Assembly: GCA_016280525.1 (NCBI GenBank)
Contig: JAEEGW010000194.1
Location: 1 to 40,666, forward strand
Origin: Clostridiales bacterium
Lineage (GTDB): Bacteria > Bacillota > Clostridia > Oscillospirales > CAG-272
Direction of reading: 5' to 3'
DNA: 40,666 nucleotides
The notes below the pieces were generated by a model, which was not told where the DNA came from, made no database searches, and saw only the letters and a list, made by a program, of their open reading frames with translations. The position numbers and the translations under genes were made by a program. Shown here piece by piece: positions 3,461 through 25,278 of the stretch. Every line of letters begins with the position of its first letter. Position 1 is the stretch's first letter.

Positions 3461-3517
3461 ATAGTTAATATAATACAAACTAACTAAATATAATAAAAAT
3501 AAAGGATGTAACAGATT

Positions 3518-6148
3518 ATGAGCGGTTTTGTTATTGAAAACGGAGTTTTGAAAAAGTACACCGGAAAAGGCAAAGACGTCGTCATACCGGAAAGCGTAAC
3601 AAAAATAGGCGATAGTGCGTTCTTCAGCTGTAGCGGTCTTACAAGCATCACGATACCTGGCAGCGTAATGTCAATAGGAGATCAAGCGTTCAGCTATTGC
3701 AGAGGTCTTACAAACGTAACAATACCGGACAGTGTAATGAAAATAGGCGATGATGCATTCGCCGGTTGCAGCGGTCTTAAAAGCGTTACTATACCGGGCA
3801 GCGTAACGAAAATAGGCGATTGTGTTTTCGAATGCTGCAGCGGCCTTATGAATGTGACGATACCAAACAGTGTAATGAAAATAGGCAATAATGCGTTCCG
3901 CGAATGCCGCGCCCTTACAAACGTTACGATACCCGACGGCGTAATTTCAATAGGCAATAGTACGTTCTACGGCTGCAATGGTCTAACAAGCGTTACGATA
4001 TCCGACAGTGTAACGAAAATAGGCAAGAGTGCGTTCAGCTATTGCAACAACCTTACAAGCGTGACGATAGGTAACGGCGTAACGGAAATAGGCGATGGTG
4101 CGTTCAGCTGGTGCAGCGGCCTTACAAGCGTGACTATACCGGACGGTATAACGTCGATAGGTAAACAGGCGTTCTCCGGCTGCAGGGGTCTTACAAGCGT
4201 GACGATATCGGACAGCGTAACGTCAATAGGCGATTGTGCGTTCTCCGGCTGCAGCAGTCTTACAAGCGTAACGATACCTGGCAGCGTAATAAGAATAGGC
4301 GATTATGCGTTCTCCTCCTGCAGCGGTCTTACAAGCGTGACAATACCTGACGGTGTTACGGAAATAGGCGAGGGTACATTTTCTTGCAGCGGCCTTACAA
4401 GCGTGACTATACCGGACGGTATAACGTCGATAGGTAAACAGGCGTTCTCCGGCTGCAGGGGTCTTACAAGCGTGACGATACCGGACAGCGTAACATCAAT
4501 AGGCGATTGTGCGTTCTTCCGCTGCAGCGGTCTGACAAGCATCACTATACCTGGCGGCGTAACGGAAATAGGCGATGGTACGTTCTCCGACTGTAACGGC
4601 TTGACATATAACGAATATGACAATGGCTTGTACATCGGAAATTATAATAATAAATACTTTGTTTTAGTAAAGGCAAAAAACACATGGATAACATCGTGTA
4701 ATATACATAATTATACAAAATTCATACATTCTTTTGCGTTCAATGGATGCAACAGTTTTACAAGCGTGACGATACCGGATAGTGTAACGAAAATAGGAGA
4801 TGGGGTGTTCCACGGTTGTAGCGGTCTTACAAGCGTGACGGTCGGCAGCAGCGTCAAAACAATAGAATGGGGTGCGTTTGACGGCTGCGTCAATTTTAAA
4901 AACGTAATTCTGAAAAACGGAAAAGATCTGTTGTGGTTTGCAGAAAATAGCGGCAATTACGCTCCGCTCTGCTGTAACGCGACGGAAGAAGAGATGGCGG
5001 AGCTGATAAAAGCCGCCGCAAAATGGGACAAGGATAAAAAAGAGGCTTTTTACAATACGTATATGATAAGCGAAACGCGCGCCGCTATACTGCTTGCGGA
5101 AAAGCGGAAAGAAATGGAAGCTTACGCGGAGTTTCATAACACCACGGTCGACGATATGCGCGACAATATGCTCTCCGATCTCGGGCTTGACGAAGACGGC
5201 TGCAAGAAATACGATATCGGAAATATGACGGTAAACGTCAGAATGCTGCCCGACTTTACGTTCACGGTCGAGCTTCCGGACGGGAAAGCCTCAAAGTCGA
5301 TCCCCAAAAAAGGCGCAGATGAAAAGAAATACGAAGAGGCGAACAAGGACTTTTCTGAGATCAAAAAGAATGTCAAGAAGATATGGAAAAACCGCTCTGA
5401 CGTTATCCTGTCCGATTTCATAACCGGAAAAGAGCGTGAAGCGTCGTACTGGCGGAAAACGTATACGGACAACCCCGTACTTCGCGGAGTTGCAAGCCTT
5501 ATCGTCTGGGAACAGAACGGAGCGTATTTCACACAAACGGAAAAAGGACCCGTGTCATGCGACGGCGTGCCGTATGAACTTGGAGAAGGTACGATCAGTG
5601 TCGCTCATCCGCTTGAAATGACTTTGGATCAAATCGCTTCATGGCAGAAATATTTCACCGATCGCGCACTGAAACAGCCGTTTGCGCAGATCTGGGAGCT
5701 CGTACATAAACCGGAGGATATAAAGCCGGACAGATATAAAGACTGCCCGATACTGTTCTTTGCGCTGCAGGGCGCCGGAAAGCACGGCTTTGACGAAAAG
5801 CTTGAGATACCCGGCTGCAAGATCGAAACGAACTGGACTTCCGAAAAAGCGCCGAACGGCAATTCCGTAAGCTACTGCAATATCACAAGCTTCAAGATAG
5901 AAAAGTACAGCCGCGCCGTGAATCACGCGATAGCGTATCTCGACCGCACGACAGTTCTCGGACGTATAGCGAAAGACGATATCAGCGTCATGGATTATGT
6001 AAAAGGCTGCAATATAGCGCAGATCACGGATTATATCGATGCCGCGTCAAATGCGAAAGCCGTAAACGTCCTCGCCGCGCTTATGGAATACAAAAACAAA
6101 ACCTACCCCGACGTCGACCCGATGGCGGAATTTACACTTGAATGGTAA
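3518..6148 (+). CDS. Cytoplasmic BspA/TpLRR-type LRR protein fused to a DUF4132-like C-terminal domain
   Basis: 876 aa. About 19 repeats of 23 aa with consensus C.GLTSVTIPDSVTSIGD.AFSG. There is no N-terminal hydrophobic signal. The C-terminal ~400 aa contain SIPKKGADEKKY..LIVWEQNG..AHPLEM..WQKYF..KQPFAQIWE, the pattern I associate with DUF4132 (MolR/YehI type). The protein ends EYKNKTYPDVDPMAEFTLEW. Confidence 0.85.
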   Translation: MSGFVIENGVLKKYTGKGKDVVIPESVTKIGDSAFFSCSGLTSITIPGSVMSIGDQAFSYCRGLTNVTIPDSVMKIGDDAFAGCSGLKSVTIPGSVTKIGDCVFECCSGLMNVTIPNSVMKIGNNAFRECRALTNVTIPDGVISIGNSTFYGCNGLTSVTISDSVTKIGKSAFSYCNNLTSVTIGNGVTEIGDGAFSWCSGLTSVTIPDGITSIGKQAFSGCRGLTSVTISDSVTSIGDCAFSGCSSLTSVTIPGSVIRIGDYAFSSCSGLTSVTIPDGVTEIGEGTFSCSGLTSVTIPDGITSIGKQAFSGCRGLTSVTIPDSVTSIGDCAFFRCSGLTSITIPGGVTEIGDGTFSDCNGLTYNEYDNGLYIGNYNNKYFVLVKAKNTWITSCNIHNYTKFIHSFAFNGCNSFTSVTIPDSVTKIGDGVFHGCSGLTSVTVGSSVKTIEWGAFDGCVNFKNVILKNGKDLLWFAENSGNYAPLCCNATEEEMAELIKAAAKWDKDKKEAFYNTYMISETRAAILLAEKRKEMEAYAEFHNTTVDDMRDNMLSDLGLDEDGCKKYDIGNMTVNVRMLPDFTFTVELPDGKASKSIPKKGADEKKYEEANKDFSEIKKNVKKIWKNRSDVILSDFITGKEREASYWRKTYTDNPVLRGVASLIVWEQNGAYFTQTEKGPVSCDGVPYELGEGTISVAHPLEMTLDQIASWQKYFTDRALKQPFAQIWELVHKPEDIKPDRYKDCPILFFALQGAGKHGFDEKLEIPGCKIETNWTSEKAPNGNSVSYCNITSFKIEKYSRAVNHAIAYLDRTTVLGRIAKDDISVMDYVKGCNIAQITDYIDAASNAKAVNVLAALMEYKNKTYPDVDPMAEFTLEW
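4112..4252 (+). repeat. Intragenic direct repeat, copy 1 (273-bp register)
   Basis: 4112..4207 is identical (96/96 by eye) to 4385..4480. The next ~45 bp are near-identical. The offset is 273 bp, which is 91 codons or four LRR units minus one residue. Confidence 0.8.
4385..4525 (+). repeat. Intragenic direct repeat, copy 2
   Basis: See 4112..4252. The same sequence TGCAGCGGCCTTACAAGCGTGACTATACCGGACGGTATAACGTCGATAGGTAAACAGGCG... recurs here. Confidence 0.8.
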
Positions 6149-6161
6149 AGGAGAAAAGAAA

Positions 6162-6380
6162 ATGAATAACGACGGATGGAAAGCGGCGGCTTTTGACCGC
6201 GCGGGATACAACGGTATCCGTGAAGAACATATTGAAGCAGTTGCTGACGAGCTTGCGGCGACGGGATTGACGACGATAACGCGCGACGATTTTGACCGCG
6301 CCTGCCTGCGCTGCGGTATCGATGGCAGCAATTTCAAGCAGTCCGATCTTGACAGGCTGAAAGAACTACTTAATAAATAA
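6162..6380 (+). CDS. Small acidic hypothetical protein (72 aa)
   Basis: I prefer the ATG at 6162 over 6138 because it is preceded by AAAGGAGAAAAGAAA, the same RBS context as the next gene (GAGGAGAAAAGAAA before 6398). There is no recognisable domain. It is locally more GC-rich than its neighbours. Confidence 0.6.
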   Translation: MNNDGWKAAAFDRAGYNGIREEHIEAVADELAATGLTTITRDDFDRACLRCGIDGSNFKQSDLDRLKELLNK

Positions 6381-6397
6381 TACGAGGAGAAAAGAAA

Positions 6398-8761
6398 ATG
6401 AGTGATTTTGTAATTGAAAACGGAGTTTTAACTAGTTACAACGGCACCGATGCTGACGTGATCATACCTGATGGTGTTGCGGAGATAGGAAGATGGGCGT
6501 TTTCCGGATGCAGAAATCTTGTAAGCGTCACTATACCGGACAGCGTAAAAATACTTGATAATCAAGCATTTAGCGGATGTAGAGGGCTGACATTTAACGT
6601 TCCGAGCTTGAGTTTTCTCTTGAATCTGCCTTTTGATAAGACAGACCTTGAAAACGGTTTGGTATCTTCTGTCGTTATTCAAGGCGAACCGTTGAAAAAA
6701 ATTACGATTGATGTTAGTATCGATATCAGTGCAAAAAACGTAGCTCTGATTAAGGGTTTGCGCGGCGTAGAGGTCATTCTGGATGATTCCGCATGCGAAA
6801 CTGGAAAAGCGTTGCCGATTGATATTGTGAAGACAATAAAACCGACAGGCAAACAGCTTGCATATTTTTTGCTGTATCAATACGGAAAGAACTGGGAAGC
6901 ATTTTTATCGAAAATCGCTAATGATAATTATGTAAACACCTTAATGAAAAATTGCGTTGAGATTCTCAGTTCGCTGAAAAAGCTCTCGGAGAAGCAGGCG
7001 AATCAGGTAATCAAGACTGCTCTTTTGCATAGCGATCATATAGAAAAAGACGTATTATCGGATCTTTCTCGTGCATTGGCCGCATTAAGTCGAAAAAGCG
7101 ATGAGCTGGATAAATTGCTCGTAACCGATAATGACGAAAAATGTTCTGATACGGCGACAGAAAAGCTCGATCAGTTCACCGCTGCTTGCGATCAAAGTTC
7201 TGAAGATTACAAAGCCGCTGTAAGTATAGTCAAAAGTGGTTTCAAAATAAGAAACTCCGATAAGAATTCTTCTTTGAAATCGGCGGTGGCTTTAGTTTCC
7301 GGGTTTATAAAACTTTGGCGCGAATCACGTACCATCACATACGGAGAGATGTCTCAGGTGGAAATGCTGACTATGCACGACTTTGGGAAAAAAAGCGGGG
7401 CAAAATTCGCCTGCCATACGTATGACGATATCATAAATGAGCTGGATTATGAGGATTTTATCGCGTTTTTGAGAAAAAATATCGAAGGAAAGAATTATAG
7501 ATTTTTCCTGATTCCTTTCTGTACTTATGCGAATGAAAAGGATATAATCAGTTTTATTGCAGAGATACGAAGCGGAAAAAAAGGAAATGCTAAAAGTAAA
7601 TATAAAGCTATCAGTTCGGAAGTCGCAATGCTTTTAAGCGAAACAAAAGCAGCGGCAATGTACTTTGACAGTACCGGATTATTCGATGAGTACGCTTCGT
7701 TTCACGGCGTTGATCCGGAAGTTATGCGTATAAAACTACTTTATGATTTCGGTTTCGATGAAAACGGAGAGAAGATATATGATCTTGGTGACAAAACCGT
7801 CACTCTGAAATTGAATCGTGAACTCTCACTTTCTCTTTTTGACGGTGATAAAGAAGTTAAATCCGTACCGAAAAAAGGCAGCGATCCTGAAAAATATGAA
7901 ATTGCAAAAAAGGACTTTGCCGATATGAAAACAACCTTTAATAAGGTCGTGAAAAATGTAGTCAAACATTTACATCGTTGTTTTCTCTTGAATCAGTCAT
8001 ATTCAAAGGACGCATGGAAGAATCAGTTTTGCGTAAATCCCATGCTCAGATCCATCGCTCGGTTGATCGTGTGGAATCAAAACGGAAACACCTTTGTTCT
8101 CACCGATGAAGGTGCGTCAGATAATACCGGGGCGTCCGTTTCACTGACAGAAGATAAGATCATTTTTGCACATCCGATGGAAATGGAAAATGAAGAAGTA
8201 ACTGCCTGGCAAAAGTATCTTGTATCTCATATGCTTAAACAACCGTTTTGCCAAATGTGGGAACCGGTAGCAGACTTTCAGAATTTTAAGGAGAATCGCT
8301 ATGAGAATTGCGACATTCCTTTGTATCGGTTTGACAATCAATACGGCATCGAAACAGTAAAAGAAACGGAGTATGATTACCGTTCTGGAATTTATGTTTA
8401 TACACGTTATGACATTATACTCGATGACTGTAAGTTTGATTGGGAACCTGTCTCCGGTACCATTGAAAGCTTGAATAAACAATCTATAATCCGAATCAAA
8501 AGTATAAACTGTCTTAAAGTTACAAGGATGACAAATCACATTATATCATACCTTGATAAGTGTACCGTTTTCAGCAGGATCGGCAAAGATGACGTAACTG
8601 TTTTGGAAATATTGCCTTCTTATACCGCCGCTCAGCTTTTGGAATTTATCAAAGCCGCGGAAGAATCGCACGCGGTAAATGTCGCGGCTTTGTTGCTTGA
8701 ATACAAAAACAAAACGTATCCCGATTTTGATCCCATGGCGGAATTCACGCTTGAATGGTAA
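6398..8761 (+). CDS. Short-LRR / helical / DUF4132-like protein, a divergent paralogue of the 3518 and 23422 products
   Basis: 787 aa. The N-terminus MSDFVIENGVLTSYNGTDADVIIPDGVAEIG is followed by only ~2 LRR units and then a ~400-aa helical region. The same C-terminal core follows: SVPKKGSDPEKY..LIVWNQNG..AHPMEM..WQKYL..KQPFCQMWE. The tail is EYKNKTYPDFDPMAEFTLEW. Confidence 0.8.
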   Translation: MSDFVIENGVLTSYNGTDADVIIPDGVAEIGRWAFSGCRNLVSVTIPDSVKILDNQAFSGCRGLTFNVPSLSFLLNLPFDKTDLENGLVSSVVIQGEPLKKITIDVSIDISAKNVALIKGLRGVEVILDDSACETGKALPIDIVKTIKPTGKQLAYFLLYQYGKNWEAFLSKIANDNYVNTLMKNCVEILSSLKKLSEKQANQVIKTALLHSDHIEKDVLSDLSRALAALSRKSDELDKLLVTDNDEKCSDTATEKLDQFTAACDQSSEDYKAAVSIVKSGFKIRNSDKNSSLKSAVALVSGFIKLWRESRTITYGEMSQVEMLTMHDFGKKSGAKFACHTYDDIINELDYEDFIAFLRKNIEGKNYRFFLIPFCTYANEKDIISFIAEIRSGKKGNAKSKYKAISSEVAMLLSETKAAAMYFDSTGLFDEYASFHGVDPEVMRIKLLYDFGFDENGEKIYDLGDKTVTLKLNRELSLSLFDGDKEVKSVPKKGSDPEKYEIAKKDFADMKTTFNKVVKNVVKHLHRCFLLNQSYSKDAWKNQFCVNPMLRSIARLIVWNQNGNTFVLTDEGASDNTGASVSLTEDKIIFAHPMEMENEEVTAWQKYLVSHMLKQPFCQMWEPVADFQNFKENRYENCDIPLYRFDNQYGIETVKETEYDYRSGIYVYTRYDIILDDCKFDWEPVSGTIESLNKQSIIRIKSINCLKVTRMTNHIISYLDKCTVFSRIGKDDVTVLEILPSYTAAQLLEFIKAAEESHAVNVAALLLEYKNKTYPDFDPMAEFTLEW

Positions 8762-8770
8762 AGGTTAAAC

Positions 8771-10144
8771 ATGACTGAAGAAGAAAAAACAAAACGGGCC
8801 GGTGAGATCGCAAAAGACGTGTTGAATTACGCCCGCAACTCGCTTCTTGTGAATATGCGTTTTCTCGATTCGGCGCTCAGCCGGCTCGGGCTTTTTCCCG
8901 CGGATACCGATATAACGCTCGGTACTGACGGAAAAAATCTGATATATCAGCCGATGCACGTTCTGAGACGTTTCAAAACGGGAAAAACCGTTATGACGCG
9001 TGATTATCTGCACGTCATTATGCACTGTATTTTCAGGCATATGTTCATAAACAGCCTGGTAAATCAGGCGGCGTGGGATCTTGCGTGCGATATAGCGGTA
9101 GAAAACGCGATATCCGGGCTCGGACTCAATACGGTTGAAACCGATGAATCGGGAAAACAAACCGCATTGTTTTCCGAATACGAAAAGAAAGCCGGCGGTA
9201 TCACCGCGGAGAGGGTATATAAGTACCTTATAGACAGCGGGTTTTCCGATGACGAGCTTGAGAAAAGACGTCAGTTCTTCAAAGCGGACGACCATTCGGT
9301 CTGGTATATGACCGACGAAGAAAAAGCGTCCGCCGGACTTCCGTCAAGCAGCGACGGTGAAAGCAAAGACGACAACGACGATGAAAATCAGGACGACGGC
9401 TCCGGCGCCGCCTACGGTTCGGAAGAAGACTGGAGGAGCATATCCGAGCACATACAGACCGACCTTGAGACGTTTCATTCACGTGGCGATACGGCAGGTA
9501 ATTTTATGCAGAACCTGCGCGAGCTGAACCGCGAAAAATACGATTATACGTCGTTTTTGAAAAAGTTTGCTGTGCTCGGTGAGGTGATGAAGATCAATCC
9601 TGAGGAATTCGATTACGTTTTCTATACATACGGTTTAAGGCTGTATGAAAAAATGCCGCTTATCGAACCGCTTGAATACAAAGACGTAAAGCGCATCAAG
9701 GATTTTGTTATCGCTATCGACACGTCCGGCTCGGTCGCCGGTGATCTTGTTCAGACGTTTTTGCAGAAAACGTTCAATATTTTAAAGTCAACGGAGAGTT
9801 TTTTCTCAAAAATAAACCTGTATATAATCCAGTGCGACGCGGCGATACAGGAAGCGTCAAAGATAACGACGCAACAGGAATTTGATGCGTATATCTCAAA
9901 TTTGACACTCAAAGGCTTCGGCGGCACGGATTTCCGCCCTGTTTTCGGTTACGTAAACTGGCTTATAGAAAAAAAGGAATTCACAAACCTCAAAGGACTT
10001 ATCTACTTCACGGACGGTTACGGCGTGTTCCCTGAAAAAAAGCCGTCGTATGAAACCGCATTCGTATTCATAGACGACGAATTCAACAACTACGACGTCC
10101 CGCCGTGGGCTATAAAGCTGATACTTAAAAAAGATGAAATATGA
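8771..10144 (+). CDS. VWA-domain protein with N-terminal DUF2201-type putative metallopeptidase-like domain (MoxR partner type)
   Basis: 457 aa. N-terminal LHVIMHCIFRH..WDLACDIAVEN resembles the DUF2201_N peptidase-like motif. An acidic linker follows (SSSDGESKDDNDDENQDDG). The C-terminal VWA domain has the MIDAS motif FVIAIDTSGSVAGD and later GGTDFRPVF..IYFTDGYG. Confidence 0.8.
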   Translation: MTEEEKTKRAGEIAKDVLNYARNSLLVNMRFLDSALSRLGLFPADTDITLGTDGKNLIYQPMHVLRRFKTGKTVMTRDYLHVIMHCIFRHMFINSLVNQAAWDLACDIAVENAISGLGLNTVETDESGKQTALFSEYEKKAGGITAERVYKYLIDSGFSDDELEKRRQFFKADDHSVWYMTDEEKASAGLPSSSDGESKDDNDDENQDDGSGAAYGSEEDWRSISEHIQTDLETFHSRGDTAGNFMQNLRELNREKYDYTSFLKKFAVLGEVMKINPEEFDYVFYTYGLRLYEKMPLIEPLEYKDVKRIKDFVIAIDTSGSVAGDLVQTFLQKTFNILKSTESFFSKINLYIIQCDAAIQEASKITTQQEFDAYISNLTLKGFGGTDFRPVFGYVNWLIEKKEFTNLKGLIYFTDGYGVFPEKKPSYETAFVFIDDEFNNYDVPPWAIKLILKKDEI

Positions 10145-10154
10145 GAGAAATATC

Positions 10155-10996: not shown

Positions 10997-11045
10997 CAAT
11001 ATTACATAACTAATAAAATTTCCAAAGATGAAAGGAATTAAAAAA

Positions 11046-11633: not shown

Positions 11634-11705
11634 AAAATTACTGTTGAGCTTACGTTTACTTGAATTTGAATTCAAGAATATCCGAAAGACGAAAGGAATT
11701 AAAAA

Positions 11706-13439: not shown

Positions 13440-13553
13440 GAATTCGGAAAACATGTAAATGATATGAACGAATATGCAGTTCAAAATAAAATTCCGGGTA
13501 AAGAACAGGAAGAATAAAAAAGGTAGCAAAAAAACCATAAACGGAGAAACATT

Positions 13554-15059: not shown

Positions 15060-15071
15060 GGAGAATATTTA

Positions 15072-18000: not shown

Positions 18001-19910
18001 ATTTCGTGCGTGAACTCGTTGGCGCCGGTGCAACATTTGATTACAAGAGTACGCCTCAGATAATCAGAAAATACAAAACAGATCAGAACACCGCAAGCGG
18101 CAGCTACAGCACAGAGTATTATCTGATGCTCGTTCCTTCAAAAATCGATATAAACCGTAGTTATGAATATACTCCGATGTACGGCGTACCGAATATTTAC
18201 ATTACAAAAGAACTTGAAGATCAAGCTCTTCCGCTAAACGATCGTATCGAAATAGTAAAATTTCTTTTGCCAAAATATAGGAAACTCGGGATTTCTCTTG
18301 ATGAAATGCTGTATTGGGCGTTGACAAGAGGCGAGATCGAATTTGCCGACGCTTTGATCAACATGGGTGTAAATCTTAATAAAACTCCTCCGAAATACTA
18401 TTCATCGTGGGGGAACTCAACGTATATAACAATAATCACGGAAGGTTATCAGTCAAATTACTGGACTTCATATATAACTGCATTATCTGATTTGCGATCC
18501 GATCAGCTTTTGCCGATGCTGAAAAGAATAGCCTTGCTTGCATCGGATTTCGGGAAAAAACCGGTCATAAGTCAGAAAATGTTTGATGAACTTAAGTGGA
18601 ATGATGAATCTTTGTCGTTCGCTTTGGATAACTGTGATTTTTCAAAAGTTAATCAGAAAAAGGCTCTCGAATCGAGCGTTTCTGGCAACCGTGATGTTTC
18701 TCTTGCAAAGATGGCTGAGATCGGATGGCTCAGTCAAGCGGCAAAACTTGATAATCTTATTGCGTTTGCCCAGGAGAATAAAAAGAATGATATTCTGGCT
18801 TGGTTGATAGATTACAAAAACAAAACAGTTGATATTGCGGCAGAAGGAAGAAAAAAAGAAGCCCAAATGATAAAAGAGCTTAGCGAAGATCCAAATTCTG
18901 TTTCATCAATAAAAAAGGTATGGAGCTATGAAAAGCTGAGCGACGGAACGCTTTTGATTACAAGTTATAAAGGAACTGAAACGAACGTCGTGATACCGTC
19001 GGTTATCGGCAAAACTGCGGTAACGGTCATCGGGAACGAAGCGTTTTCTGCGTCATCTTTCGGTAGAAAGGCATCTAATTACGAAATAAGAAAAAAGATC
19101 ACGTCGATCATTATTCCGGAAGGGGTAAAAGAAATATGGTCTTGGGCATTCAGTTGTTGTGAATCTCTTGTAACTGTCACGCTTCCGGATACGCTCAAAA
19201 CAATAAGTAATTATGCATTCAGCTCCTGTGAAAAGCTTAAGGATATTTCAATACCAAAAGGGATCAAAACAATCGATCCGTCTGCGTTTTCAGGTTGTGA
19301 TTCATTGAAGGACGAAAACGGTTTTGCCGTGGTAGACGGGTTTTTGCTCGGTTACTATGGTTACGATTCTTCGCTTCGTATTCCGGATGTTGTTAAATAC
19401 GTCGTGTCGCTTTTAGGCAAATACTCTTCATTTAATAAAAGTATAACTGAGATAATATTGCCGGAAGGACTTGAAAATATCGGAGAAGGCGCTTTTGAAA
19501 ACTCAACAGAGCTTGAATCGATATCTATACCGTCAAGCGTAAAAACAATAGGTAAAAAAGCGTTCTTTAAATCGGGAATAGAGACAATTGAACTGAAGGA
19601 AGGACTTAAGACGATCGGAGCCGAAGCGTTTGCACACACTCCGCTTAATTCAGTAAAAATCCCGCAAAGTGTAGTAAAGATCGGTCCGCAGGCGTTTTTC
19701 AGCTGCAGGAAGCTGAAAGACGTTTATATATCCGAAAAAACAGTAAAATTCGGTAAAGAGATCCTCGGAGCATACGATTCTGACACCTCGTTGGGAGTTG
19801 TTAAACCTTCTGGCGTTTACGTACATACACCTGCAGGATCGGCGGCGGAAGAATATATGAAACAGTACGGCGGCGTATGCATTGTCAATGATTACGGGGA
19901 GGATAAATGA
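15072..19910 (+). CDS. Giant cytoplasmic LRR - ankyrin-like helical core - LRR protein (1612 aa)
   Basis: The N-terminus MTDFAIENGVLKKYNGNDTAVTIPNGITAIG is followed by ~800 aa of divergent BspA-type LRR units (IP..V..IG..AF..C..L). A ~450-aa helical region has ankyrin-like segments (ALGLACRYRGLDFVRELVGAGATFD; LYWALTRGEIEFADALINMGVNLN) and ends AWLIDYKNKTVD. A second LRR array of ~330 aa follows. The stop overlaps the next start (ATGA). Confidence 0.85.
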   Translation: MTDFAIENGVLKKYNGNDTAVTIPNGITAIGYGAFKKNKTITEIIIPNTVLCIESLAFQGCAKLKSVVFSNVLEKIGEDCFENCKSLKTVELPKTLRFLGAGAFAGCTKLISVKCDSEVFEAGEDPFSPRFSYSLDRQISPCTQLADEQGFLIFCGVLYAYYGNSTEIVVPNSVKVIVAGAFKSGEFYWERKLNLKSVVIPDTVKEIGAAAFANNKKLKSIKMPSGIKLGQNVFFGCKDLADENGFFVYDQTAYTYYYDDENVTVTEGVKKLSAGLFENKKMHSVSLPDSLICVGEKAFCGCGNLESIIIPEGVKRIGADAFKSCKCLANVSIPDSVESIGDGIFTGCERLADKNGFVIMNDTIQSFFGTARDIVVPEGIISIADSVFDSTNIASIKLPTTLRKLGQSVFENCKMLTEIEIPEGIAELKSEAFYGCSRLEKVSLPDSLTEIDSYVFCGCDKLTEIQISENVKRIGAAAFSGCSSLRKFNIPNGVKTIEYNTFSECCFLEEITIPESVEKVEDNAFLNCKNLKTVNCRTTQTSFSRSAFNGCTGLIDKNGMTIISGILFKVEDGLENVIIPEGVTTIAPDVLREGIAYFGGSFNTYKNAGTLKSVVLPSTLKDICSGAFAGCESLKTVSVPNGVKRIGEESFAGCSALTEIDIPNSVTRVDKRAFKGCSSLKSAKLSASLIELNTEVFFSCKSLKTLHIPETTVSIEIDALKGCDSLKSIEVDKNNPEYCSIDGMLFNKTGDELLYVPGGKLSHEYEIPGYVKTIGSRAFADCTALKKIVIPGSVKNIGDEAFPRKTWNSNSYLNDIEVSPEASSGMIGNNIFDIADGDKPLVFPKLPVSFVKEQAIQVCLGLGYCLNPEKYEGEYADIYKKYALSHQRILIKKGQEQKLSEIEQYFASVNPDDGSSVCAYKPELSLKKPNELQKVEILEEAVRKGTLDDLKAVIKTYKPFEITARALGLACRYRGLDFVRELVGAGATFDYKSTPQIIRKYKTDQNTASGSYSTEYYLMLVPSKIDINRSYEYTPMYGVPNIYITKELEDQALPLNDRIEIVKFLLPKYRKLGISLDEMLYWALTRGEIEFADALINMGVNLNKTPPKYYSSWGNSTYITIITEGYQSNYWTSYITALSDLRSDQLLPMLKRIALLASDFGKKPVISQKMFDELKWNDESLSFALDNCDFSKVNQKKALESSVSGNRDVSLAKMAEIGWLSQAAKLDNLIAFAQENKKNDILAWLIDYKNKTVDIAAEGRKKEAQMIKELSEDPNSVSSIKKVWSYEKLSDGTLLITSYKGTETNVVIPSVIGKTAVTVIGNEAFSASSFGRKASNYEIRKKITSIIIPEGVKEIWSWAFSCCESLVTVTLPDTLKTISNYAFSSCEKLKDISIPKGIKTIDPSAFSGCDSLKDENGFAVVDGFLLGYYGYDSSLRIPDVVKYVVSLLGKYSSFNKSITEIILPEGLENIGEGAFENSTELESISIPSSVKTIGKKAFFKSGIETIELKEGLKTIGAEAFAHTPLNSVKIPQSVVKIGPQAFFSCRKLKDVYISEKTVKFGKEILGAYDSDTSLGVVKPSGVYVHTPAGSAAEEYMKQYGGVCIVNDYGEDK

Positions 19911-20764
19911 TGTCAAAAATACTTTTACTCGGCAACGGGATAAACCGCTGCTTTGCGAAAAGCTCGTGGCGGGACGCCATTGAAAACGTTCGGTCAAAAT
20001 ACGGCGTGAAAACAACGGCGAAGCAAATAGAAAAGCTGCCGTATAATATGCAGATCGTCGCGGCTTCAAACGATAGAGTTGAAGACGCGATGAAGGATTA
20101 CTGCGCGGATCTGTGCGCGGACGAGATAAGTGAAGAAAACAAAGATCTTATTCTCAATATCACGGACGGTTTTGACGAAATCCTGACAACAAATTACAGT
20201 TTTGAGATAGAGCAGGCGCTCGGCGTCAAGCCTTCCGCCGCGTCGTACCGCAGAATTTCGAATCAGAGCAGAGACGGTCTGAAAGACCGGCAGAAAAAGA
20301 TGAATATATATAAATATCACAAAGCAAAGGACAAGCGTATTTGGCACATACACGGCGACGCCGCCGCGCCGAGATCGGTAGTTATGGGTCACTACTATTA
20401 CGGCAAGCTTTTGAGGGAGATTCAGGAGAGAGTATCGGAATTCGTGCCCGGATATATGGGCAAAACGGCAGAGGGTTTGGAATACGAACCGTCAAGCTGG
20501 GTCGATCTGTTCCTTATGAACGACGTTTATATCATCGGTTTTGCATTTGATCTGTGCGAGTACGATCTGTATTATCTGCTCTGCTGCAAAAAACGCAGAG
20601 AAAACGGCTCGACCGTAACGTATATCGTAAAAGAAGGCGAGACGATAGACCCGGAAAAGAAAATAATGCTTGACGCATATAATGTAAAAACAAAAAAAAT
20701 AAAAGCCGCGGACTATAAAGAATTTTATAAAGCCGCTGCGGAATACGTAAGGAGGATAAAATAA
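19907..20764 (+). CDS. SIR2-like (SIR2_2 family) protein, candidate NAD+-consuming effector
   Basis: 285 aa with ILLLGNGINRCF, ILTTNYSFEIEQAL, RIWHIHGD and VYIIGFAFDLCEYDLYYLL. These match the G.G, TTNYD, hHG and IGYS..D pattern of SIR2_2 domains as I remember it. An alternative ATG at 19910 has better spacing from GGGGAGG. Confidence 0.7.
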   Translation: MMSKILLLGNGINRCFAKSSWRDAIENVRSKYGVKTTAKQIEKLPYNMQIVAASNDRVEDAMKDYCADLCADEISEENKDLILNITDGFDEILTTNYSFEIEQALGVKPSAASYRRISNQSRDGLKDRQKKMNIYKYHKAKDKRIWHIHGDAAAPRSVVMGHYYYGKLLREIQERVSEFVPGYMGKTAEGLEYEPSSWVDLFLMNDVYIIGFAFDLCEYDLYYLLCCKKRRENGSTVTYIVKEGETIDPEKKIMLDAYNVKTKKIKAADYKEFYKAAAEYVRRIK

Positions 20765-20906
20765 TGAGTGATTTTGTAATTGAAAACAGAGTTTTGATCA
20801 AGTACACGGGAAAAGATTCAGACGTCGTAATTCCCGACGGCGTAACGTCAATAAGCTGGCGTGCGTTCGAAGGCTGCAGTAGTCTTACAAGCGTGACGAT
20901 ACCGGA
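20691..20906 (+). repeat. 216-bp direct repeat, copy 1 (3' end of SIR2 gene + 5' end of LRR gene)
   Basis: Near-identical to 23350..23564. By eye I found three small differences: the A8 versus A7 run, GAATTTTAT versus GATTTCTAT, and AACAGAG versus AACGGAG. Confidence 0.85.
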
Positions 20907-23325
20907 AAGCGTAACAACAATAGGCGCACGGGCATTTTCTGACTGTTGGAATCTTACTAACGTGACAATACCAGGCAGTGTAACGTCAATAGGAAGTTAT
21001 GCGTTCTTACGCTGCAGAAGTTTTTCAAACATGACTATACCAGACAGCATAACGTCAATTGCAGAGAGTGTGTTCTCCGAATGCAGCAGTCTTACAAGTG
21101 TGACCATACCGGGCGGAGTAACGGAAATAGGCAAAAATGCATTCCATGGCTGCAGCAAATTGATATATAATGAATATGATAATGCACTTTATTTGGGAAA
21201 TACGCATAATCCATATTATGCGTTAATTAAAGTAAAAAACAAGTCAAGAAAAATTGGTAATATAAATGAAAAAACAAGAATTATCGCAAGTGGAGCGTTT
21301 AACAACTGCAGCAGTCTTACAAGCATAATGATCCCCGACAGCGTGACCTCAATCGGCAATGAAGCGTTCCATAGCTGCGCAAGTCTGACAAGCATGACGA
21401 TCCCCGACAGTGTGACCTTGATCGGCAATAAAGCGTTCTATAGCTGCGCAAGTCTGACAAGCGTGACGATACCTGACAGCGTGACCTTAATCGGCAATGA
21501 AGCGTTCCATAGTTGCGCAAGCCTGAAAAGCGTGACGATACCGGATAGCGTAATATCAATAGGCATATCAGCATTTGAAAACTGCAGTGAATTGGATTAT
21601 AATGAATATGACAGTGCGCTTTATTTGGGAAATAAATATAATCCGTACCACGTTTTGATCAAAGGAATAAACGAGTCAATAAAAAGTGTTAATATAAACG
21701 AAAAAACAAAGGTCATTGCATGTGGTGCATTTTATAAATTCAACAGTCTTACCAGTATAACAATACCGGACGGCGTAACGTCAATAGGCGCTTATGCGTT
21801 TGATAGCTGCAGCGTTCTTGAAAGCGTGACTATAGGAAACGGTGTAAAGTCAATAGGCTATCGTGCATTGTGCAGCAGTCTTAAAAGCATAACTGTATCA
21901 GACAAAAAAGGTGTATATCATGCATCCGGCAACTGTCTTATAGAAACCGAGAGCAAAACGCTGATAAAAGGCTGCGAAAACAGTGTGATACCGAATGACG
22001 GCAGCGTAACATCAATAAGTGATAATGCATTTTTAGAATGCAATCTTAAAAATGTGACGATACCGGATAGCGTAACAAAGATTGGCGGTTGGGCGTTTTG
22101 CGGTTGCAGCAGTCTTACAAACATTACGATACCAGACAGTGTAACGTCAATAGGCGATTATGCGTTTTACTACTGCAGAAGTCTTACCAAAGTGACGATA
22201 CCGGGCAGTGTAACGTCAATAGGTTATGGCACGTTCGAAGAATGCAGTAACCTTACAAACGTTGATGCGTCTGAAGAGCAGTTCACGCTTGTGTGGAATA
22301 CGCTTGAACCAGATCAGAAAAATAATATTGCATACAATTGTTTGAAATTCGGTCAGACATATAACAAAGTCAAAGATTTTGTTAAGAGAAAAAAAGATGA
22401 TGTTTTAAACATAATAATCAAAGACGACGACGTTAAAGAGTTTGAATCATATTTACTGATGCTCAAAAAGCCGGACGTCGGGGCACTTGACGAATATCTT
22501 GAAAAATCGCAGAATACCATCAATATCAAAGCGTATCTTCTCGATTATAAAGCAAAAAATTTTTCAAGAGTACAAACCGAAGAATACTACGACGATCAGA
22601 CCGAAAAGGAGCTCGGATTTAAAGAACGTACATTATCGGATTGGCGAAAGATTTTCAAAATAACCGATAAAGACGGCAAAAGATATATCAGCGGCTATAG
22701 AGCTGATGATCCGACGGTGGTAATTCCCTCGGACATCGCGGGCAAGCCCGTATACGGTATAGCAGACAAGGCGTTTAAAAAATGCACAACCCTGACAAGT
22801 GTGATGATAGAGGACGGCGTAAAGTCAATAGGCGCTTGGGCGTTCGCCGGTTGCAGCAGTCTTACAAGCGTGACGATACCGAAAAGCATGACTTCAATAG
22901 ACTCCCTTGCGTTTGACGATTGTATCAGACTTAAAAGAGTTTACATAACCGATATTGCAAAATGGTGTGAGATAAGTTACTCTAATAATATATCAAATCC
23001 GTTGATTATTGCTCATAACCTGTATTTAAACAACGAATTGATGACTGATCTTGCTATACCGGACAGCGTGACGAAAATAGGCGAGAGTGCGTTCGACGGT
23101 TGCAAGAGTCTTACAAGCGTGATAATACCGGATAGCGTGACTAATATTGGTGATTATGCGTTCTATAACTGCAGAAATTTAACAAGCGTGACTATACCGG
23201 ATAGCGTAATATCAATAGGTGACAAAACGTTTTCCCGATGCAAATCGCTTAAAATATGCGCATCTGCAGGGTCATATGCCGATAAATACGCTAAGAAGAA
23301 TAAGATTCCTTTTGAGGCAATTTGA
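20764..23325 (+). CDS. Cytoplasmic LRR - helical spacer - LRR protein (853 aa)
   Basis: The start overlaps the SIR2 stop (TAATG). The N-terminus is MSDFVIENRVLIKYTGKDSDVVIPDGVTSIS. LRR arrays flank the same helical module as in the 11706 product (ASEEQFTLVW..AYLLDYKAKNFS..RYISGYRADDPTVVIPSDIAGKPVYGIADKAF). Confidence 0.85.
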   Translation: MSDFVIENRVLIKYTGKDSDVVIPDGVTSISWRAFEGCSSLTSVTIPESVTTIGARAFSDCWNLTNVTIPGSVTSIGSYAFLRCRSFSNMTIPDSITSIAESVFSECSSLTSVTIPGGVTEIGKNAFHGCSKLIYNEYDNALYLGNTHNPYYALIKVKNKSRKIGNINEKTRIIASGAFNNCSSLTSIMIPDSVTSIGNEAFHSCASLTSMTIPDSVTLIGNKAFYSCASLTSVTIPDSVTLIGNEAFHSCASLKSVTIPDSVISIGISAFENCSELDYNEYDSALYLGNKYNPYHVLIKGINESIKSVNINEKTKVIACGAFYKFNSLTSITIPDGVTSIGAYAFDSCSVLESVTIGNGVKSIGYRALCSSLKSITVSDKKGVYHASGNCLIETESKTLIKGCENSVIPNDGSVTSISDNAFLECNLKNVTIPDSVTKIGGWAFCGCSSLTNITIPDSVTSIGDYAFYYCRSLTKVTIPGSVTSIGYGTFEECSNLTNVDASEEQFTLVWNTLEPDQKNNIAYNCLKFGQTYNKVKDFVKRKKDDVLNIIIKDDDVKEFESYLLMLKKPDVGALDEYLEKSQNTINIKAYLLDYKAKNFSRVQTEEYYDDQTEKELGFKERTLSDWRKIFKITDKDGKRYISGYRADDPTVVIPSDIAGKPVYGIADKAFKKCTTLTSVMIEDGVKSIGAWAFAGCSSLTSVTIPKSMTSIDSLAFDDCIRLKRVYITDIAKWCEISYSNNISNPLIIAHNLYLNNELMTDLAIPDSVTKIGESAFDGCKSLTSVIIPDSVTNIGDYAFYNCRNLTSVTIPDSVISIGDKTFSRCKSLKICASAGSYADKYAKKNKIPFEAI
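21307..21513 (+). repeat. Three near-identical tandem 69-bp units (one LRR each)
   Basis: Units 21307-21375, 21376-21444 and 21445-21513 encode C(S/A)SLTS(I/M/V)(M/T)IPDSVT(S/L)IGN(E/K)AF(H/Y)S. The nucleotides are nearly identical between units. Confidence 0.8.
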
Positions 23326-23349
23326 TTGAAGAGCAAATAATGTATAAAT

Positions 23350-23564
23350 CAAAAAAATAAAAGCCGCGGACTATAAAGATTTCTATAAAGCCGCTGCGGA
23401 ATACGTAAGGAGGATAAAATAATGAGTGATTTTGTAATTGAAAACGGAGTTTTGATCAAGTACACGGGAAAAGATTCAGACGTCGTAATTCCCGACGGCG
23501 TAACGTCAATAAGCTGGCGTGCGTTCGAAGGCTGCAGTAGTCTTACAAGCGTGACGATACCGGA
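23350..23564 (+). repeat. 215-bp direct repeat, copy 2 (orphan SIR2 3' fragment + 5' end of LRR-DUF4132 gene)
   Basis: It carries a non-functional copy of the last ~22 SIR2 codons (KIKAADYKDFYKAAAEYVRRIK*), including the TAATG junction with the 23422 start. Confidence 0.85.
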
Positions 23565-25278
23565 TAGCGTAACGAAAATAGGTAACGAGGTGTTCTGGGG
23601 TTGTAGGAACCTTTCTAACATGGCAATAGGAAACGGAGTAACGGAAATAGGTGATTCTAAGTTCTCTTATTATACCGGTCTTAAGAGCGTTATATTGTCG
23701 GACAGTATTACATCTATTGGCAATCGTGCGTTCGAAGGCTGCAGCAGTCTTACAAGTGTGACGATACCGGATAGCGTAATAACAATAGGCAAAGAAGCGT
23801 TCTGGGGTTGCAGCAGCCTCACAAAAGTAACGATAGGAAGCGGTGTAACAGAAATAGGTGATTCTGCGTTCTCTCATTGCAGCAGTCTTAAGAGCGTTAC
23901 GATACCGAACAGCGTAATGAAAATAGGCGGCGCTGCCTTTTTCGGTTGCCGCAGTCTTACAAACGTAACGATAGGAAACGGGGCAGTGATAATAGGTTAC
24001 TCTGCATTCAAAGGATGCAATAAGCTTGAAAGCATAACTTTACCAGAGAGCAAAAATCTGTCAAGGTTGGCTGAAGAGTGTAATGATTACGATCCGCTCT
24101 GTCGTGCTGCAACTGAAGAGCAAATGGCGGAGCTTATAAAAGCGGTGGCAAAATGGGACAGATATAATAAAGAAGCCTTTTATGTATCATATATGATAAG
24201 CGACACACGCGCGGCGATACTGCTTGCGGAAAAGCGAAAGGAACTTGATAAATACGCGGATATGCGCGGGATGACGGCGGATGAGGTGCGTGACAGACTG
24301 CTTTCAGATTTCGGACTTGACGCCGATGGATGTAAAGAATATGACCTCGGAAACACCGTAGTGAAAGTCAAAATGCTGCCCGATTTCACGTTTGCTGTGG
24401 ATCTGCCGGACGGCAAGATCTCAAAATCGCTGCCGAAAAAAGGCGCAGATGAGAAAAAGTTCAAAGAAGCGGATAAAGATTTTTCGGAAATGAAGAAAAA
24501 CGTGAAAAAGGTTTGGAAAAACCGTTCCGATCTGCTGTTATCCGATTTTGTGAGCGGTAAAAAACGCGCCGCGTCTTATTGGAAAAAGACTTACACGGGC
24601 AACCCGGTGCTTCGCGGCGTAGCAAAGCTTATAGTATGGGAGCAGAACGGCAAATACTTCACACTCGCTGACGGCGGTACGATCGGATCGGACGGTTCTC
24701 CGTATGAACTTACAAAAGAATCAGTCCGTTTGGCACACCCGTTGGAAATGAGCAAAGACGATGTCACGTCGTGGCAGAAATACTATACCGATCGCGGACT
24801 CAAACAGCCGTTTGCACAGATATGGGAGCCCGTACATAAGCCTGAGAATATAAAGTCTGACAGATATAAAAATTGTCCGATACTGTTCTTTGCGCTGCAG
24901 GGAGCGACAAAACACGGCTTTAATGAGAAACTTAACATCCCCGGATGCACGATCAAAACGGAATGGAAATCAGAAAAAGCGGCAAACGGTAATTCGGTGA
25001 GTTATTGCAATATTCTTGATTTCAATATTGAAAAATACAGCCGCGCCGTAAATCACGCCGTCGCATATCTCGACCGCACGACAGTTCTCGGACGTATCGC
25101 AAAGGACGATTTAAGCGTGATGGATTACGTTGAAGGCAGCAATATCGCGCAGATCACCGACTATATCGAAGCCGCGTCAAACGCAAAAGCAGTAAACGTT
25201 CTCGCCGCTCTTATGGAATACAAAAACAAAACTTACCCCGATTTCGATCCCATGGCGGAATTCACACTTGAATGGTAA
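23422..25278 (+). CDS. Cytoplasmic LRR protein fused to a DUF4132-like C-terminal domain (close paralogue of the 3518 product)
   Basis: 618 aa with ~8 LRR units. The C-terminal ~410 aa are highly similar to the 3518 product over its length (my rough estimate is three quarters or more identical): LPKKGADEKKF..LIVWEQNG..AHPLEM..WQKYY..KQPFAQIWE..EYKNKTYPDFDPMAEFTLEW. Confidence 0.85.
   Translation: MSDFVIENGVLIKYTGKDSDVVIPDGVTSISWRAFEGCSSLTSVTIPDSVTKIGNEVFWGCRNLSNMAIGNGVTEIGDSKFSYYTGLKSVILSDSITSIGNRAFEGCSSLTSVTIPDSVITIGKEAFWGCSSLTKVTIGSGVTEIGDSAFSHCSSLKSVTIPNSVMKIGGAAFFGCRSLTNVTIGNGAVIIGYSAFKGCNKLESITLPESKNLSRLAEECNDYDPLCRAATEEQMAELIKAVAKWDRYNKEAFYVSYMISDTRAAILLAEKRKELDKYADMRGMTADEVRDRLLSDFGLDADGCKEYDLGNTVVKVKMLPDFTFAVDLPDGKISKSLPKKGADEKKFKEADKDFSEMKKNVKKVWKNRSDLLLSDFVSGKKRAASYWKKTYTGNPVLRGVAKLIVWEQNGKYFTLADGGTIGSDGSPYELTKESVRLAHPLEMSKDDVTSWQKYYTDRGLKQPFAQIWEPVHKPENIKSDRYKNCPILFFALQGATKHGFNEKLNIPGCTIKTEWKSEKAANGNSVSYCNILDFNIEKYSRAVNHAVAYLDRTTVLGRIAKDDLSVMDYVEGSNIAQITDYIEAASNAKAVNVLAALMEYKNKTYPDFDPMAEFTLEW

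Follow-up and report, generated by a model that had tools for sequence, protein, structure and literature searches.

Six BspA-type leucine-rich repeat (LRR) proteins are encoded on a mobile island in a 40,666-nucleotide stretch of DNA from a Clostridiales bacterium (GenBank assembly GCA_016280525.1, contig JAEEGW010000194.1; the whole stretch is referred to hereafter as the window). We propose that these LRR_5 proteins act in the cytoplasm as the variable target-recognition third component of a machine built from a MoxR-like AAA+ ATPase and a protein with a von Willebrand factor A (VWA) domain, probably a conflict system, and we put the probability of this reading at roughly one half. A conserved VWA-LRR-MoxR cassette is present in at least several hundred species of Clostridia and is amplified on this island. 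Coordinates are those of the whole window; the genes of interest occupy 3518-25278 (Table 1), a single co-directional block in which the genes are tightly packed.

Six LRR proteins without export signals

Pfam family LRR_5 (PF13306, BspA-type) was assigned to six open reading frames (ORFs), LRR1 to LRR6, far above the gathering cut-off in every case (E-values 1e-9 to 7e-195). Their lengths (876+787+577+1612+853+618) add up to the 5323 aa given in an earlier sequence-only reading of this DNA, or 15,987 nt, and its estimate that they fill about 45% of the island was likewise borne out, at 45.7% of the 34,994 bp bounded by the attachment (att) sites. An iterated hidden Markov model of the repeat recognized 98 copies of a 23-residue unit across the six proteins, 96 of them in its alignment, with the consensus L-x-x-V-x-I-P-x-x-V-x-x-I-G-x-x-A-F-x-x-C-x-x, and a 69-nt periodicity in the DNA matches this 23-residue repeat. 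When the LRR part of LRR6 was compared with the PDB by phmmer, it matched 4fs7 (3e-56), 4gt6 (8e-50) and 6mlx (TpLRR, 2.5e-25).

Seven ORFs had been said to begin with a common unit. This holds for the six LRR proteins but not for the orphan ORF at 11046, which shares only MSDFVIEN with them and has no LRR_5 match; the orphan is also present in locus L001, one of the related loci described below. A shufflon or cassette role for the common N-terminal unit was considered and rejected: the seven starts are only 66-75% alike in DNA and all lie on one strand. The exception to this likeness is the recent LRR5/LRR6 duplication, in which a 250-nt segment comprising the 3' end of the SIR2 gene and the first 160 nt of LRR5 now forms the 5' end of LRR6. 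The copy (20675-20924 and 23333-23582) records a recent event, by recombination or duplication, through which new LRR genes are built.

In LRR4, the cap unit of the N-terminus recurs internally and restarts each module, for example DEQGFLIFCGVLYAYYG, DENGFFVYDQ, DKNGFVIMND and DENGFAVVDG. Its ankyrin-like helical domain gave a weak Ank_2 match, and the Ank matches of related loci are sub-threshold. The domain ends in L-I-D-Y-K-N-K, a motif common to the DUF4132 proteins, LRR3 and LRR5.

Export was judged by Kyte-Doolittle hydropathy and motif heuristics, which flagged three controls in the window and five signal-peptide-bearing LRR ORFs elsewhere. The controls (the minus-strand gene at 1-870 and the genes at 38143 and 40049) all have obvious signal peptides, as had been claimed for them. 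By contrast, and again as claimed, no signal peptide, lipobox, transmembrane segment or anchor was found by hydropathy, motif and Pfam scans in any of the six LRR proteins. The maximum 19-residue Kyte-Doolittle mean was at most 1.43 across the six, compared to 2.71 for the dockerin protein at 38104. The motif scan detected neither a twin-arginine translocation (Tat) motif nor LPxTG in these proteins, and Pfam detected no anchor, SLH, CWB or dockerin domain. Each LRR ORF has an ATG start with a Shine-Dalgarno sequence, and because its reading frame is closed by a stop codon 3-33 nt before the ATG, a longer N-terminus cannot be concealed.

The LRR genes are embedded, as had been described, among genes that Pfam assigns to ATPase, VWA, SIR2 and nuclease families. 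The stop codon of LRR4 overlaps the start of the SIR2 gene, whose own stop overlaps the start of LRR5; the LRR2 stop lies 9 nt ahead of the VWA start, and the AAA stop 12 nt ahead of LRR4. No dedicated exporter was found, and none is conserved near the cassette, by clustering of 80 related loci and a Pfam scan of their 127 immediate neighbours. A cytoplasmic location for the LRR proteins, expressed together with cytoplasmic enzymes, is well supported by these sequences because signals and anchors are missing, there is no room for an extension and the genes are coupled to those of cytoplasmic enzymes. Further support comes from the fusion of LRR arrays to DUF4132 or ankyrin-like modules and from the recurrence of the same architecture, without a signal peptide, in 111 of 116 relatives. 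Of the intracellular recognition role proposed earlier, the location thus stands on sequence grounds, but recognition itself is a plausible role that we infer.

A VWA-LRR-AAA cassette in other species

A scan of one genome per GTDB species (185,579 species genomes) returned at least 590 confirmed matches, from which 80 loci, each from a different species, were kept. The loci are anchored on the AAA gene and were annotated with queries derived from the window; LRR ORFs were called as the longest ORFs. According to the record titles, they come from Oscillospiraceae, Acutalibacteraceae, Lachnospiraceae, Anaerovoracaceae, Peptococcaceae and other groups.

Of the 80 loci, 69 have VWA and AAA genes together and 60 have one or more LRR_5 genes within 10 kb; the LRR copy number ranges from 0 to 8. 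LRR and AAA genes are contiguous in 51 loci and the full VWA-LRR-AAA set is contiguous in 41; the usual gene order is VWA, LRR(n), AAA. Among the 116 complete LRR ORFs at these loci, 111 have no N-terminal hydrophobic segment and five are signal-peptide-like. Four of these five fall outside the VWA-to-AAA core. The exception is an LRR_5 ORF directly downstream of the ATPase gene (L042:11518-13536) with a signal-peptide-like N-terminus (MKRLISMLLVLCLTLFLLPATAWA). Most of the ORFs that lack a signal peptide start with the cap seen in the window, (M)xDFxIxNGVLxKYxGxxxxVxIPxGVTxIG, and a second class starts with an ankyrin-like helical domain of the kind that LRR4 contains internally.

Some of the other island genes accompany the cassette elsewhere. 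A SIR2 gene lies beside the AAA gene in L021, L023 and L025, SbcC/SbcD genes adjoin the cassette in L007, L009, L010, L012 (SbcC only) and L069 as well as in the related island L087, and a DUF1351-exonuclease is linked to the cassette in L009. Clustering across the 80 loci revealed no other conserved partner near the cassette; the flanks hold diverse, unrelated housekeeping genes, so the cassette is self-contained. The Pfam scan of the 127 immediate neighbours returned 142 families, of which DUF6273 (6 loci), SbcD (4) and AspRS (3) were the most frequent. An argument from defence islands was abandoned, as DUF6273, SbcD and scattered housekeeping genes were all that recurred among the 127 neighbours or across the 80 loci. 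Nor is a phage or plasmid origin supported: the matches were limited to seven small, unannotated faecal 'Bacteriophage sp.' contigs and four IMG/VR loci, and no plasmid homologues above 30% identity were found.

The DUF4132 module and the partner proteins

LRR1, LRR2 and LRR6 end in DUF4132 (E-values 1e-22 to 2e-25), a domain that the earlier reading had missed, as it had the conserved MoxR-VWA-LRR cassette. A search with this module recovered 122 clusters, nearly all of them metagenomic, and the few named ones are from Clostridia or Oscillospiraceae. Many of the architectures carry LRR_5 over DUF4132, some carry DUF6273 plus LRR_5 and others have N-termini without assignment; across the clusters recovered, the pattern is one of a variable N-terminal module on a constant C-terminal DUF4132. 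The AlphaFold2 (AF2) model of the LRR6 DUF4132 module has a predicted local distance difference test score (pLDDT) of 91.4 and a predicted template-modelling score of 0.84, with a tail below pLDDT 50. Foldseek found no match to it in the PDB at E < 0.001, and no functional lead came from the fold. In hhalign, the family profile matched the C-terminal portion of YehI from E. coli over 283 columns (probability 97.6%, E 2.6e-12). In the tail, DFDPMAEFTLEW, which ends in DPMAEFTLEW, the residues D, P, E, F and L are at least 90% conserved.

DUF6273 genes lie beside the ATPase gene at L080:6570-7733 and in five other loci, as an alternative or additional module, and DUF6273 is fused N-terminally to LRR_5 and DUF4132 in P0006, P0007 and P0009. 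Judged from these architectures, it may be another sensor head of the same system. A 400-aa metagenomic protein, P0120, joins DUF2201_N directly to the C-terminal half of DUF4132 and ends in ...DFDPMNEFTLEW; it was found as one cluster on one contig. It could be a Rosetta-stone hint of a link between VWA and DUF4132, or else an assembly chimera.

Our literature search found no functional study on DUF4132, on DUF2201 (InterPro and COG identifiers included) or on a MoxR-LRR pairing. In Deinococcus, the DUF4132 gene DRA0166 and a separate WGR gene, DR2173, go up strongly on depletion of DdrO, as part of the DNA-damage-response regulon, and E. coli MolR is described as a member of the LexA regulon (PMC8533742).

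The VWA partner carries a metal ion-dependent adhesion site (MIDAS), DTSGS..T..D, that is at least 97% conserved in 72 homologues. The AF2 model of its C-terminal domain matched VWA and integrin I-domains in Foldseek (probability 1.0), with midasin also among the matches; the zincin-like N-terminal domain had no separate Foldseek match, and the acidic linker between the two domains is disordered in the model. In DUF2201_N, H81-x3-H85-C86-x3-H90 is invariant in the 72 homologues, the spacing of two of the histidines being that of the zincin HExxH motif, and Val or Ile occupies the position of the catalytic Glu throughout. This domain is probably metal-binding and non-proteolytic. Because the Glu of HExxH is replaced by Val or Ile, the family name 'metallopeptidase' given by some sources may be wrong. 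At least 8000 clusters are homologous to the VWA protein, and the best of those listed are 56-85% identical to it.

The ATPase likewise has at least 8000 homologous 90%-identity clusters (E<=1e-10), the 120 best listed being 72-100% identical. Its Walker A (GPPGIGKT) and Walker B (LFLDE) motifs are invariant in the homologues, which sources call 'MoxR family ATPase', and its match to the Pfam bpMoxR model scored 27.2 bits against a threshold of 27.0. Distant relatives of the ATPase (26-28% identity) were seen in Salmonella phage vB_SalP_TR2 and in Vibrio phages of about 190 kb, and the genome paper of an N4-like coliphage cites two InterPro identifiers of DUF2201 domains. The AAA-VWA pairing may therefore be older and broader than Clostridia.

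Variability of the LRR repeats

Entropy per repeat position peaks at positions 12, 15, 16 and 19, reaching 3.0-3.5 bits among the window repeats and 3.5-3.8 bits in a set of 1299. These positions flank the invariant pairs I13-G14 and A17-F18, and within LRR1 pN exceeds pS at all four (nonsynonymous and synonymous differences per site, respectively). On these profiles, the position-specific hypervariability is real. It had been expected on the concave face of the solenoid; the canonical β-strand x positions 2, 3 and 5 are mostly T, S and T in the window, so the predicted concave face is not hypervariable and the expectation fails in that form.

The islands closest to the window, L004 and L087, keep the same backbone in synteny, with identities of 82% for the AAA protein, 70% for VWA, 75% for SIR2, 71% for SbcD and 90-95% for the exonuclease. 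In contrast, the best matches of LRR3, LRR4 and LRR5 in these islands are only 27-41% identical, and LRR genes differ in number and length. Judged from the three islands, LRR turnover is fast on a stable backbone.

Proposed mechanism and alternative explanations

In the mechanism that we propose, each LRR solenoid would bind a specific intracellular ligand via the hypervariable stripe formed by positions 12, 15, 16 and 19. Coupling of the LRR array to the VWA protein would fall either to the ankyrin-like helical domain or to DUF4132, through its conserved, flexible and acidic tail (...DPMAEFTLEW). A candidate contact, offered as a guess, is that the tail DFDPMAEFTLEW is gripped by the VWA MIDAS, because the tail is acidic, conserved and predicted to be flexible and VWA MIDAS sites bind extended acidic peptides (PMC7159879). 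Remodelling or release of the complex would follow, driven by the MoxR ATPase. The likeliest purpose would be conflict, in which proteins of phage or other mobile elements are sensed; output could run via the linked SIR2 or nuclease genes where these are present, and in the minimal three-gene form it could consist of target sequestration or remodelling. In conflict systems, MoxR-vWA pairs are described as threshold switches whose third component varies (PMC7159879). The SIR2_2/AbiH-like gene between LRR genes, a candidate for an NADase effector, would fit a conflict role, as would the two DEDDh exonucleases and SbcCD.

Several observations weigh against this reading. The positions that are hypervariable differ from the canonical concave ones of an LRR. 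The excess of nonsynonymous substitution expected at the former, measured as dN/dS (omega), appeared within this island family only. Aligned LRR-DUF4132 pairs retain 0-24% amino-acid identity at positions 12, 15, 16 and 19 and gave dN/dS values there of 3.2, 0.96, 6.0, 1.8 and 1.75, compared to 0.1-0.5 at the core repeat positions, 0.13-0.2 in DUF4132 and 0.07 in the ATPase; the values above 1 come from 16-68 codons, near saturation and with repeats possibly out of register. The alignment of LRR6 with its L004 orthologue is offset by three repeats. For other species, 11 independent reciprocal-best orthologue pairs were compared, and omega at the four positions was about 0.03-0.8, with two exceptions, one pair at 2.4 and one in which dS was saturated and no estimate was obtained. 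Omega at the core positions of these pairs was 0.03-0.16. The excess is therefore not seen in 10 of the 11 pairs from other species, and the pattern there indicates relaxed constraint or elevated variability and not general positive selection. Diversifying selection at positions 12, 15, 16 and 19 is only suggested by these alignments.

The proposal is weakened, too, by what surrounds the LRR proteins. The minimal cassette has no recognizable effector, and the zincin-like domain is without its catalytic Glu. PADLOC gave no system-level match for the non-LRR proteins of the island, and defence-island enrichment was lacking, with only about 5 of the 127 immediate neighbours matching PADLOC families. 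If AAA and VWA are immune genes, their conservation is unusually strong (the closest homologues listed are 56-85% identical, and dN/dS is 0.07-0.16). Contact between the LRR, VWA and AAA proteins is hypothetical, and the tail-to-MIDAS step is guesswork.

The absence of an effector, of a PADLOC match and of defence-island enrichment, together with the strong conservation of the engine, makes a non-immune chaperone or assembly system a serious rival, although we consider it somewhat unlikely. Such a system would resemble RavA-ViaA, CbbQ-CbbO or NorQ-NorD; the LRR proteins would be scaffolds, adaptors or clients, and the number of paralogues would track the number of clients. The extreme conservation and abundance of AAA and VWA under strong purifying selection would suit it, as would the mostly purifying or relaxed selection on the LRR orthologues of other species and the housekeeping neighbours of an effectorless minimal cassette. 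Established MoxR-VWA pairs are maturation chaperones (PMC7159879). What speaks against it is the rapid turnover of the LRR genes in copy number (0-8), length and sequence among close relatives whose backbone stays constant, and the presence of the window cassette on a mobile island together with SIR2, exonucleases and SbcCD. In CbbQO, NorQD and CoxDE, the genes of the client enzyme are conserved alongside, whereas no candidate client enzyme is conserved beside the LRR cassette.

An element-serving role and non-classical secretion are both less likely than the chaperone or adaptor explanation. We regard it as unlikely that the LRR arrays are cargo that serves the element, either as decoys or inhibitors of host defence or repair (anti-defence) or as entry-exclusion or addiction factors, with SbcCD, the exonucleases and DUF1351 processing the DNA of the element itself. 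The island is bounded by att repeats at tRNA-Pro and carries a MobL relaxase and two integrases, its backbone is preserved in the syntenic islands L004 and L087, the cassette has SbcC/SbcD neighbours in 5 of the 80 loci and in L087 and a linked DUF1351-exonuclease in L009, and a few homologues occur in viral-fraction contigs. Against these observations, most of the 80 loci are ordinary chromosomal contexts without mobility genes, the IMG/VR matches number only four with none from plasmids, and a SIR2/AbiH-like gene is more typical of host defence.

That the six are conventional BspA-type surface adhesins which leave the cell by a non-classical route (lysis, an unrecognized C-terminal signal or an exporter encoded elsewhere) is very improbable: all characterized bacterial BspA/TpLRR proteins are surface proteins, as are the proteins behind the weakly matched NCBIfam models (HupY/LrrG adhesin, Gli349), and the cassette-adjacent ORF L042|11518 and four nearby ones carry signal peptides, but every export feature scanned for (signal peptide, transmembrane segment, lipobox, Tat motif, LPxTG, wall-binding domain) is missing from the six, as signal peptides are from 111 of 116 relatives, and the neighbourhood holds no conserved exporter. 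In addition, the arrays of the six are fused to ankyrin-like repeats and to DUF4132, which in E. coli occurs alongside WGR, MoxR and SWIM genes, and translational coupling ties their genes to those of cytoplasmic enzymes.

The island and its neighbouring genes

The element is an integrative mobilizable island, because it is bounded by att direct repeats at tRNA-Pro and carries integrases and a relaxase. It spans 34,994 bp (about 2867-37860) and is inserted in tRNA-Pro, with the integrases beside attR. Upstream of LRR1 there are two promoter-like sites, which are consensus matches only, and no terminator-like site was found in intergenic + strand sequence within the scanned range 2500-22000.

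Within the block, the exonuclease gene that follows the VWA gene is broken. Its 280-aa orthologue in L004 aligns in two different frames, aa 1-160 (95%) in one and aa 160-280 (99%) in the other, and the ORFs at 10134-10673 and 10742-10996 are the two halves of the frameshifted gene; either a pseudogene or a sequencing error would account for this. The product of the small gene at 6162-6380 is 80-86% identical to those of 70-aa genes in L004 (two copies) and L087, and the L004 and L087 copies are 94-100% identical to one another; the gene is more conserved than its neighbours. It contains the motif …DGWKxAAFDRAGYNGIREEHI…GIDGSNFKQSDLDRL…. Downstream of the LRR genes, an HTH_36 protein (Pfam) is encoded after SbcC and before the MobL relaxase.

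Table 1. Features of the island and their positions in the window.
Feature	Position	Strand	Description
attL	2815..2866	.	52 nt, 96% identical to 37861-37912; left island boundary, copy of the tRNA-Pro 3' end
Promoter matches	3433..3494	+	two overlapping sigma-70-like matches: TTGTAA-16-TATAAT with TG; TTAATA-18-TATAAT
LRR1	3518..6148	+	876 aa; ~17 BspA-type repeats and C-terminal DUF4132; LRR_5 7e-195, DUF4132 1.3e-22
Small conserved gene	6162..6380	+	~70 aa; follows LRR-DUF4132 genes; no Pfam match
LRR2	6398..8761	+	787 aa; N-terminal cap, ~2 LRR units, helical middle, DUF4132; LRR_5 1e-9, DUF4132 2.5e-23
VWA partner	8771..10144	+	DUF2201_N zincin-like N-domain, acidic disordered linker, DUF2201 VWA-like domain with intact MIDAS
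DEDDh (RNase_T) exonuclease	10134..10996	+	RNase_T 1e-20; frameshifted near 10631
Orphan ORF	11046..11633	+	first 8 residues / 24 nt (MSDFVIEN) as in the LRR genes, then diverges; no family match
LRR3	11706..13439	+	577 aa; LRR module, helical middle domain, LRR module; LRR_5 1e-122; 15 units
MoxR-like AAA+ ATPase	13554..15059	+	AAA, AAA_5 and bpMoxR matches; Walker A GPPGIGKT, Walker B ILFLDE
LRR4	15072..19910	+	1612 aa; several LRR modules around ankyrin-like helical domain; LRR_5 3e-193; 33 units
SIR2_2/AbiH-like protein	19907..20764	+	SIR2_2 4.9e-7, above cut-off; AbiH 3.7e-6, below cut-off
LRR5	20764..23325	+	853 aa; helical middle domain as in LRR3; LRR_5 3.6e-161; 22 units
Segmental duplication	23333..23582	+	250 nt, 96% identical to 20675-20924
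LRR6	23422..25278	+	618 aa; 9 LRR units and DUF4132; LRR_5 1.3e-59, DUF4132 2.4e-25; conserved tail DFDPMAEFTLEW
DNA-processing module	25305..31406	+	DUF1351 and DEDDh exonuclease, RNA polymerase alpha-CTD-like protein, SbcD, SbcC (Pfam)
MobL relaxase and two tyrosine integrases	34024..37732	+	MobL 5e-29; mobility genes, adjoin attR
attR	37861..37912		direct repeat of 2815-2866
tRNA-Pro(cgg)	37867..37943	-	ARAGORN; right island boundary together with attR

The sequence next to the island holds a decayed remnant of a related element (942-1300). Within it, 1076-1160 is 85% identical to 31624-31708, the start of a 310-aa gene, 1197-1277 is 84% identical to 37812-37892, and a degenerate tRNA 3' end lies at 1246-1297. 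The similarity of remnant and island suggests tandem accretion at tRNA-Pro. A listed 282-aa ORF at 109-957 (+) is probably spurious, the real gene being the one on the minus strand that runs from about 870 to 1 and off the window, with a signal peptide. On the other side, just outside the island, 38104-40008 and 40049-40666 are tandem paralogous genes with dockerin and SASA (sialate O-acetylesterase-like) domains and signal peptides, 74-78% identical in nucleotides. Their domains point to a host that bears a cellulosome.

Significance

In annotation and in discussion, BspA/TpLRR repeats figure almost exclusively as surface adhesins of mucosal microbes. A large, conserved subset that lacks signal peptides and is genetically tied to MoxR and VWA genes changes the reading of thousands of annotations in gut Firmicutes, and the BspA-type repeat probably also works intracellularly as a recognition module. 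Three very abundant families, the DUF2201 VWA/zincin-like proteins, their MoxR partner and DUF4132, gain a common context that can be tested.

More tentatively, gut Clostridia may possess an undescribed MoxR-VWA ternary surveillance class in which LRR solenoids would serve as cytoplasmic pattern-recognition receptors and DUF4132 would plug the sensors into the engine. If so, a fraction of the 'BspA-like adhesins' of Firmicutes would be intracellular immune-type sensors, and DUF4132, that of the E. coli yeh locus included, would gain a function. If the system serves conflict, bacterial immunity would gain an LRR-based intracellular sensor whose AAA+ engine is a protein of its own and not a built-in STAND NTPase. 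If it is instead a chaperone system, it would be a widespread client-adaptor system in anaerobes that is new to description.

Comparison with known systems

The 23-residue repeat of the window proteins is that of the BspA/TpLRR surface proteins (Tannerella BspA, Treponema TpLRR/LrrA, Streptococcus PcpA; PDB 6mlx, 4fs7, 4gt6, 4cp6). This repeat is treated as a module of surface or mucosal adhesins, and Firmicutes hold most of its bacterial members (PMC2843621). The BspA/TpLRR proteins are described as secreted, lipid-anchored or wall-bound, whereas the window proteins carry no export or anchoring signal; unlike them, the LRRs of the window are fused to DUF4132 or ankyrin-like modules and share an operon with AAA+, VWA, SIR2 and exonuclease genes. 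A closer architecture is found in Leptospira interrogans LIC_12901 (1616 aa, no signal peptide), in which an LRR array is likewise fused to DUF4132, although that protein also carries a WGR domain (PMC11674859).

In E. coli K-12, yehI lies beside yehL (MoxR AAA_5), yehM (DUF5682), yehP (VWA_CoxE) and yehQ (SWIM), and the yehF-yehH-yehI / yehLMPQ cluster also includes a WGR gene. DUF4132 thus stands beside MoxR and VWA there as it does here, so that it keeps such company in two very distant lineages. The two clusters differ in other respects. The window AAA protein and YehL gave a BLASTP E-value of 0.16, with nothing significant beyond the P-loop; the window VWA is DUF2201-type in contrast to the VWA_CoxE of YehP; and the N-terminal module here is LRR_5. 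Pfam found no DUF5682, SWIM or WGR in the window proteins scanned.

Repeat-sensor receptors, both the Avs/NLR-like STAND proteins and eukaryotic NLR and VLR proteins, resemble the LRR proteins in having a solenoid, position-specific hypervariability, a presumed sensor role and lineage-specific expansion of paralogues. Unlike the Avs/bNACHT STAND sensors, the NTPase here is a separate MoxR AAA+ protein, and none of the six LRR proteins contains an NTPase domain. Among PADLOC-DB v2 profiles, the VWA protein had no match, the AAA protein matched IetA only at the level of the P-loop, SIR2 gave a weak LmuA match (2e-7) and SbcC matched LmuB. Lamassu, with SIR2 as LmuA and SbcC as LmuB, was rejected since SbcC is paired with a bona fide SbcD and lies 8 kb from SIR2; LmuC, the third Lamassu component, had no match among the ten proteins scanned.

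The closest described kind is the MoxR-vWA ternary conflict systems of Kaur, Burroughs, Iyer and Aravind (2020, eLife; PMC7159879). Four subtypes are distinguished there, with VMAP, an inactive STAND (iSTAND), FtsH, or a propeller fused to vWA; the propeller and FtsH subtypes have a GXXXTAKS P-loop, and the propeller subtype occurs in Bacteroidetes and Proteobacteria. The system of the window shares with them an AAA+ protein of the MoxR clade, a vWA with MIDAS and a variable third component made of supersecondary-structure repeats, and with the beta-propeller subtype a core without a conventional effector. As for modular or hypervariable components, the LRR genes turn over fast and have hypervariable positions, omega above 1 is not general, and effectors (SIR2, exonucleases) occur in only a subset of the 80 loci. 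Identity with the beta-propeller system, suggested by the bpMoxR match, was rejected because there is no propeller and the P-loop is canonical. A full-text search of PMC7159879 gave no match for DUF4132, DUF2201 or 'leucine-rich' and one mention of 'LRR'.

Other features set it apart from the systems of Kaur and co-workers. The vWA here has an N-terminal DUF2201_N zincin-like domain and no C-terminal propeller, the P-loop is a canonical GPPGIGKT in contrast to the GXXXTAKS subtypes, and the hosts are gut Clostridia and not Bacteroidetes, Proteobacteria or Planctomycetes. The third component is LRR_5 with or without DUF4132 in place of VMAP, iSTAND, FtsH or a propeller. Judged from its components, what is new here is a MoxR-VWA system whose third component is a BspA-type LRR protein.

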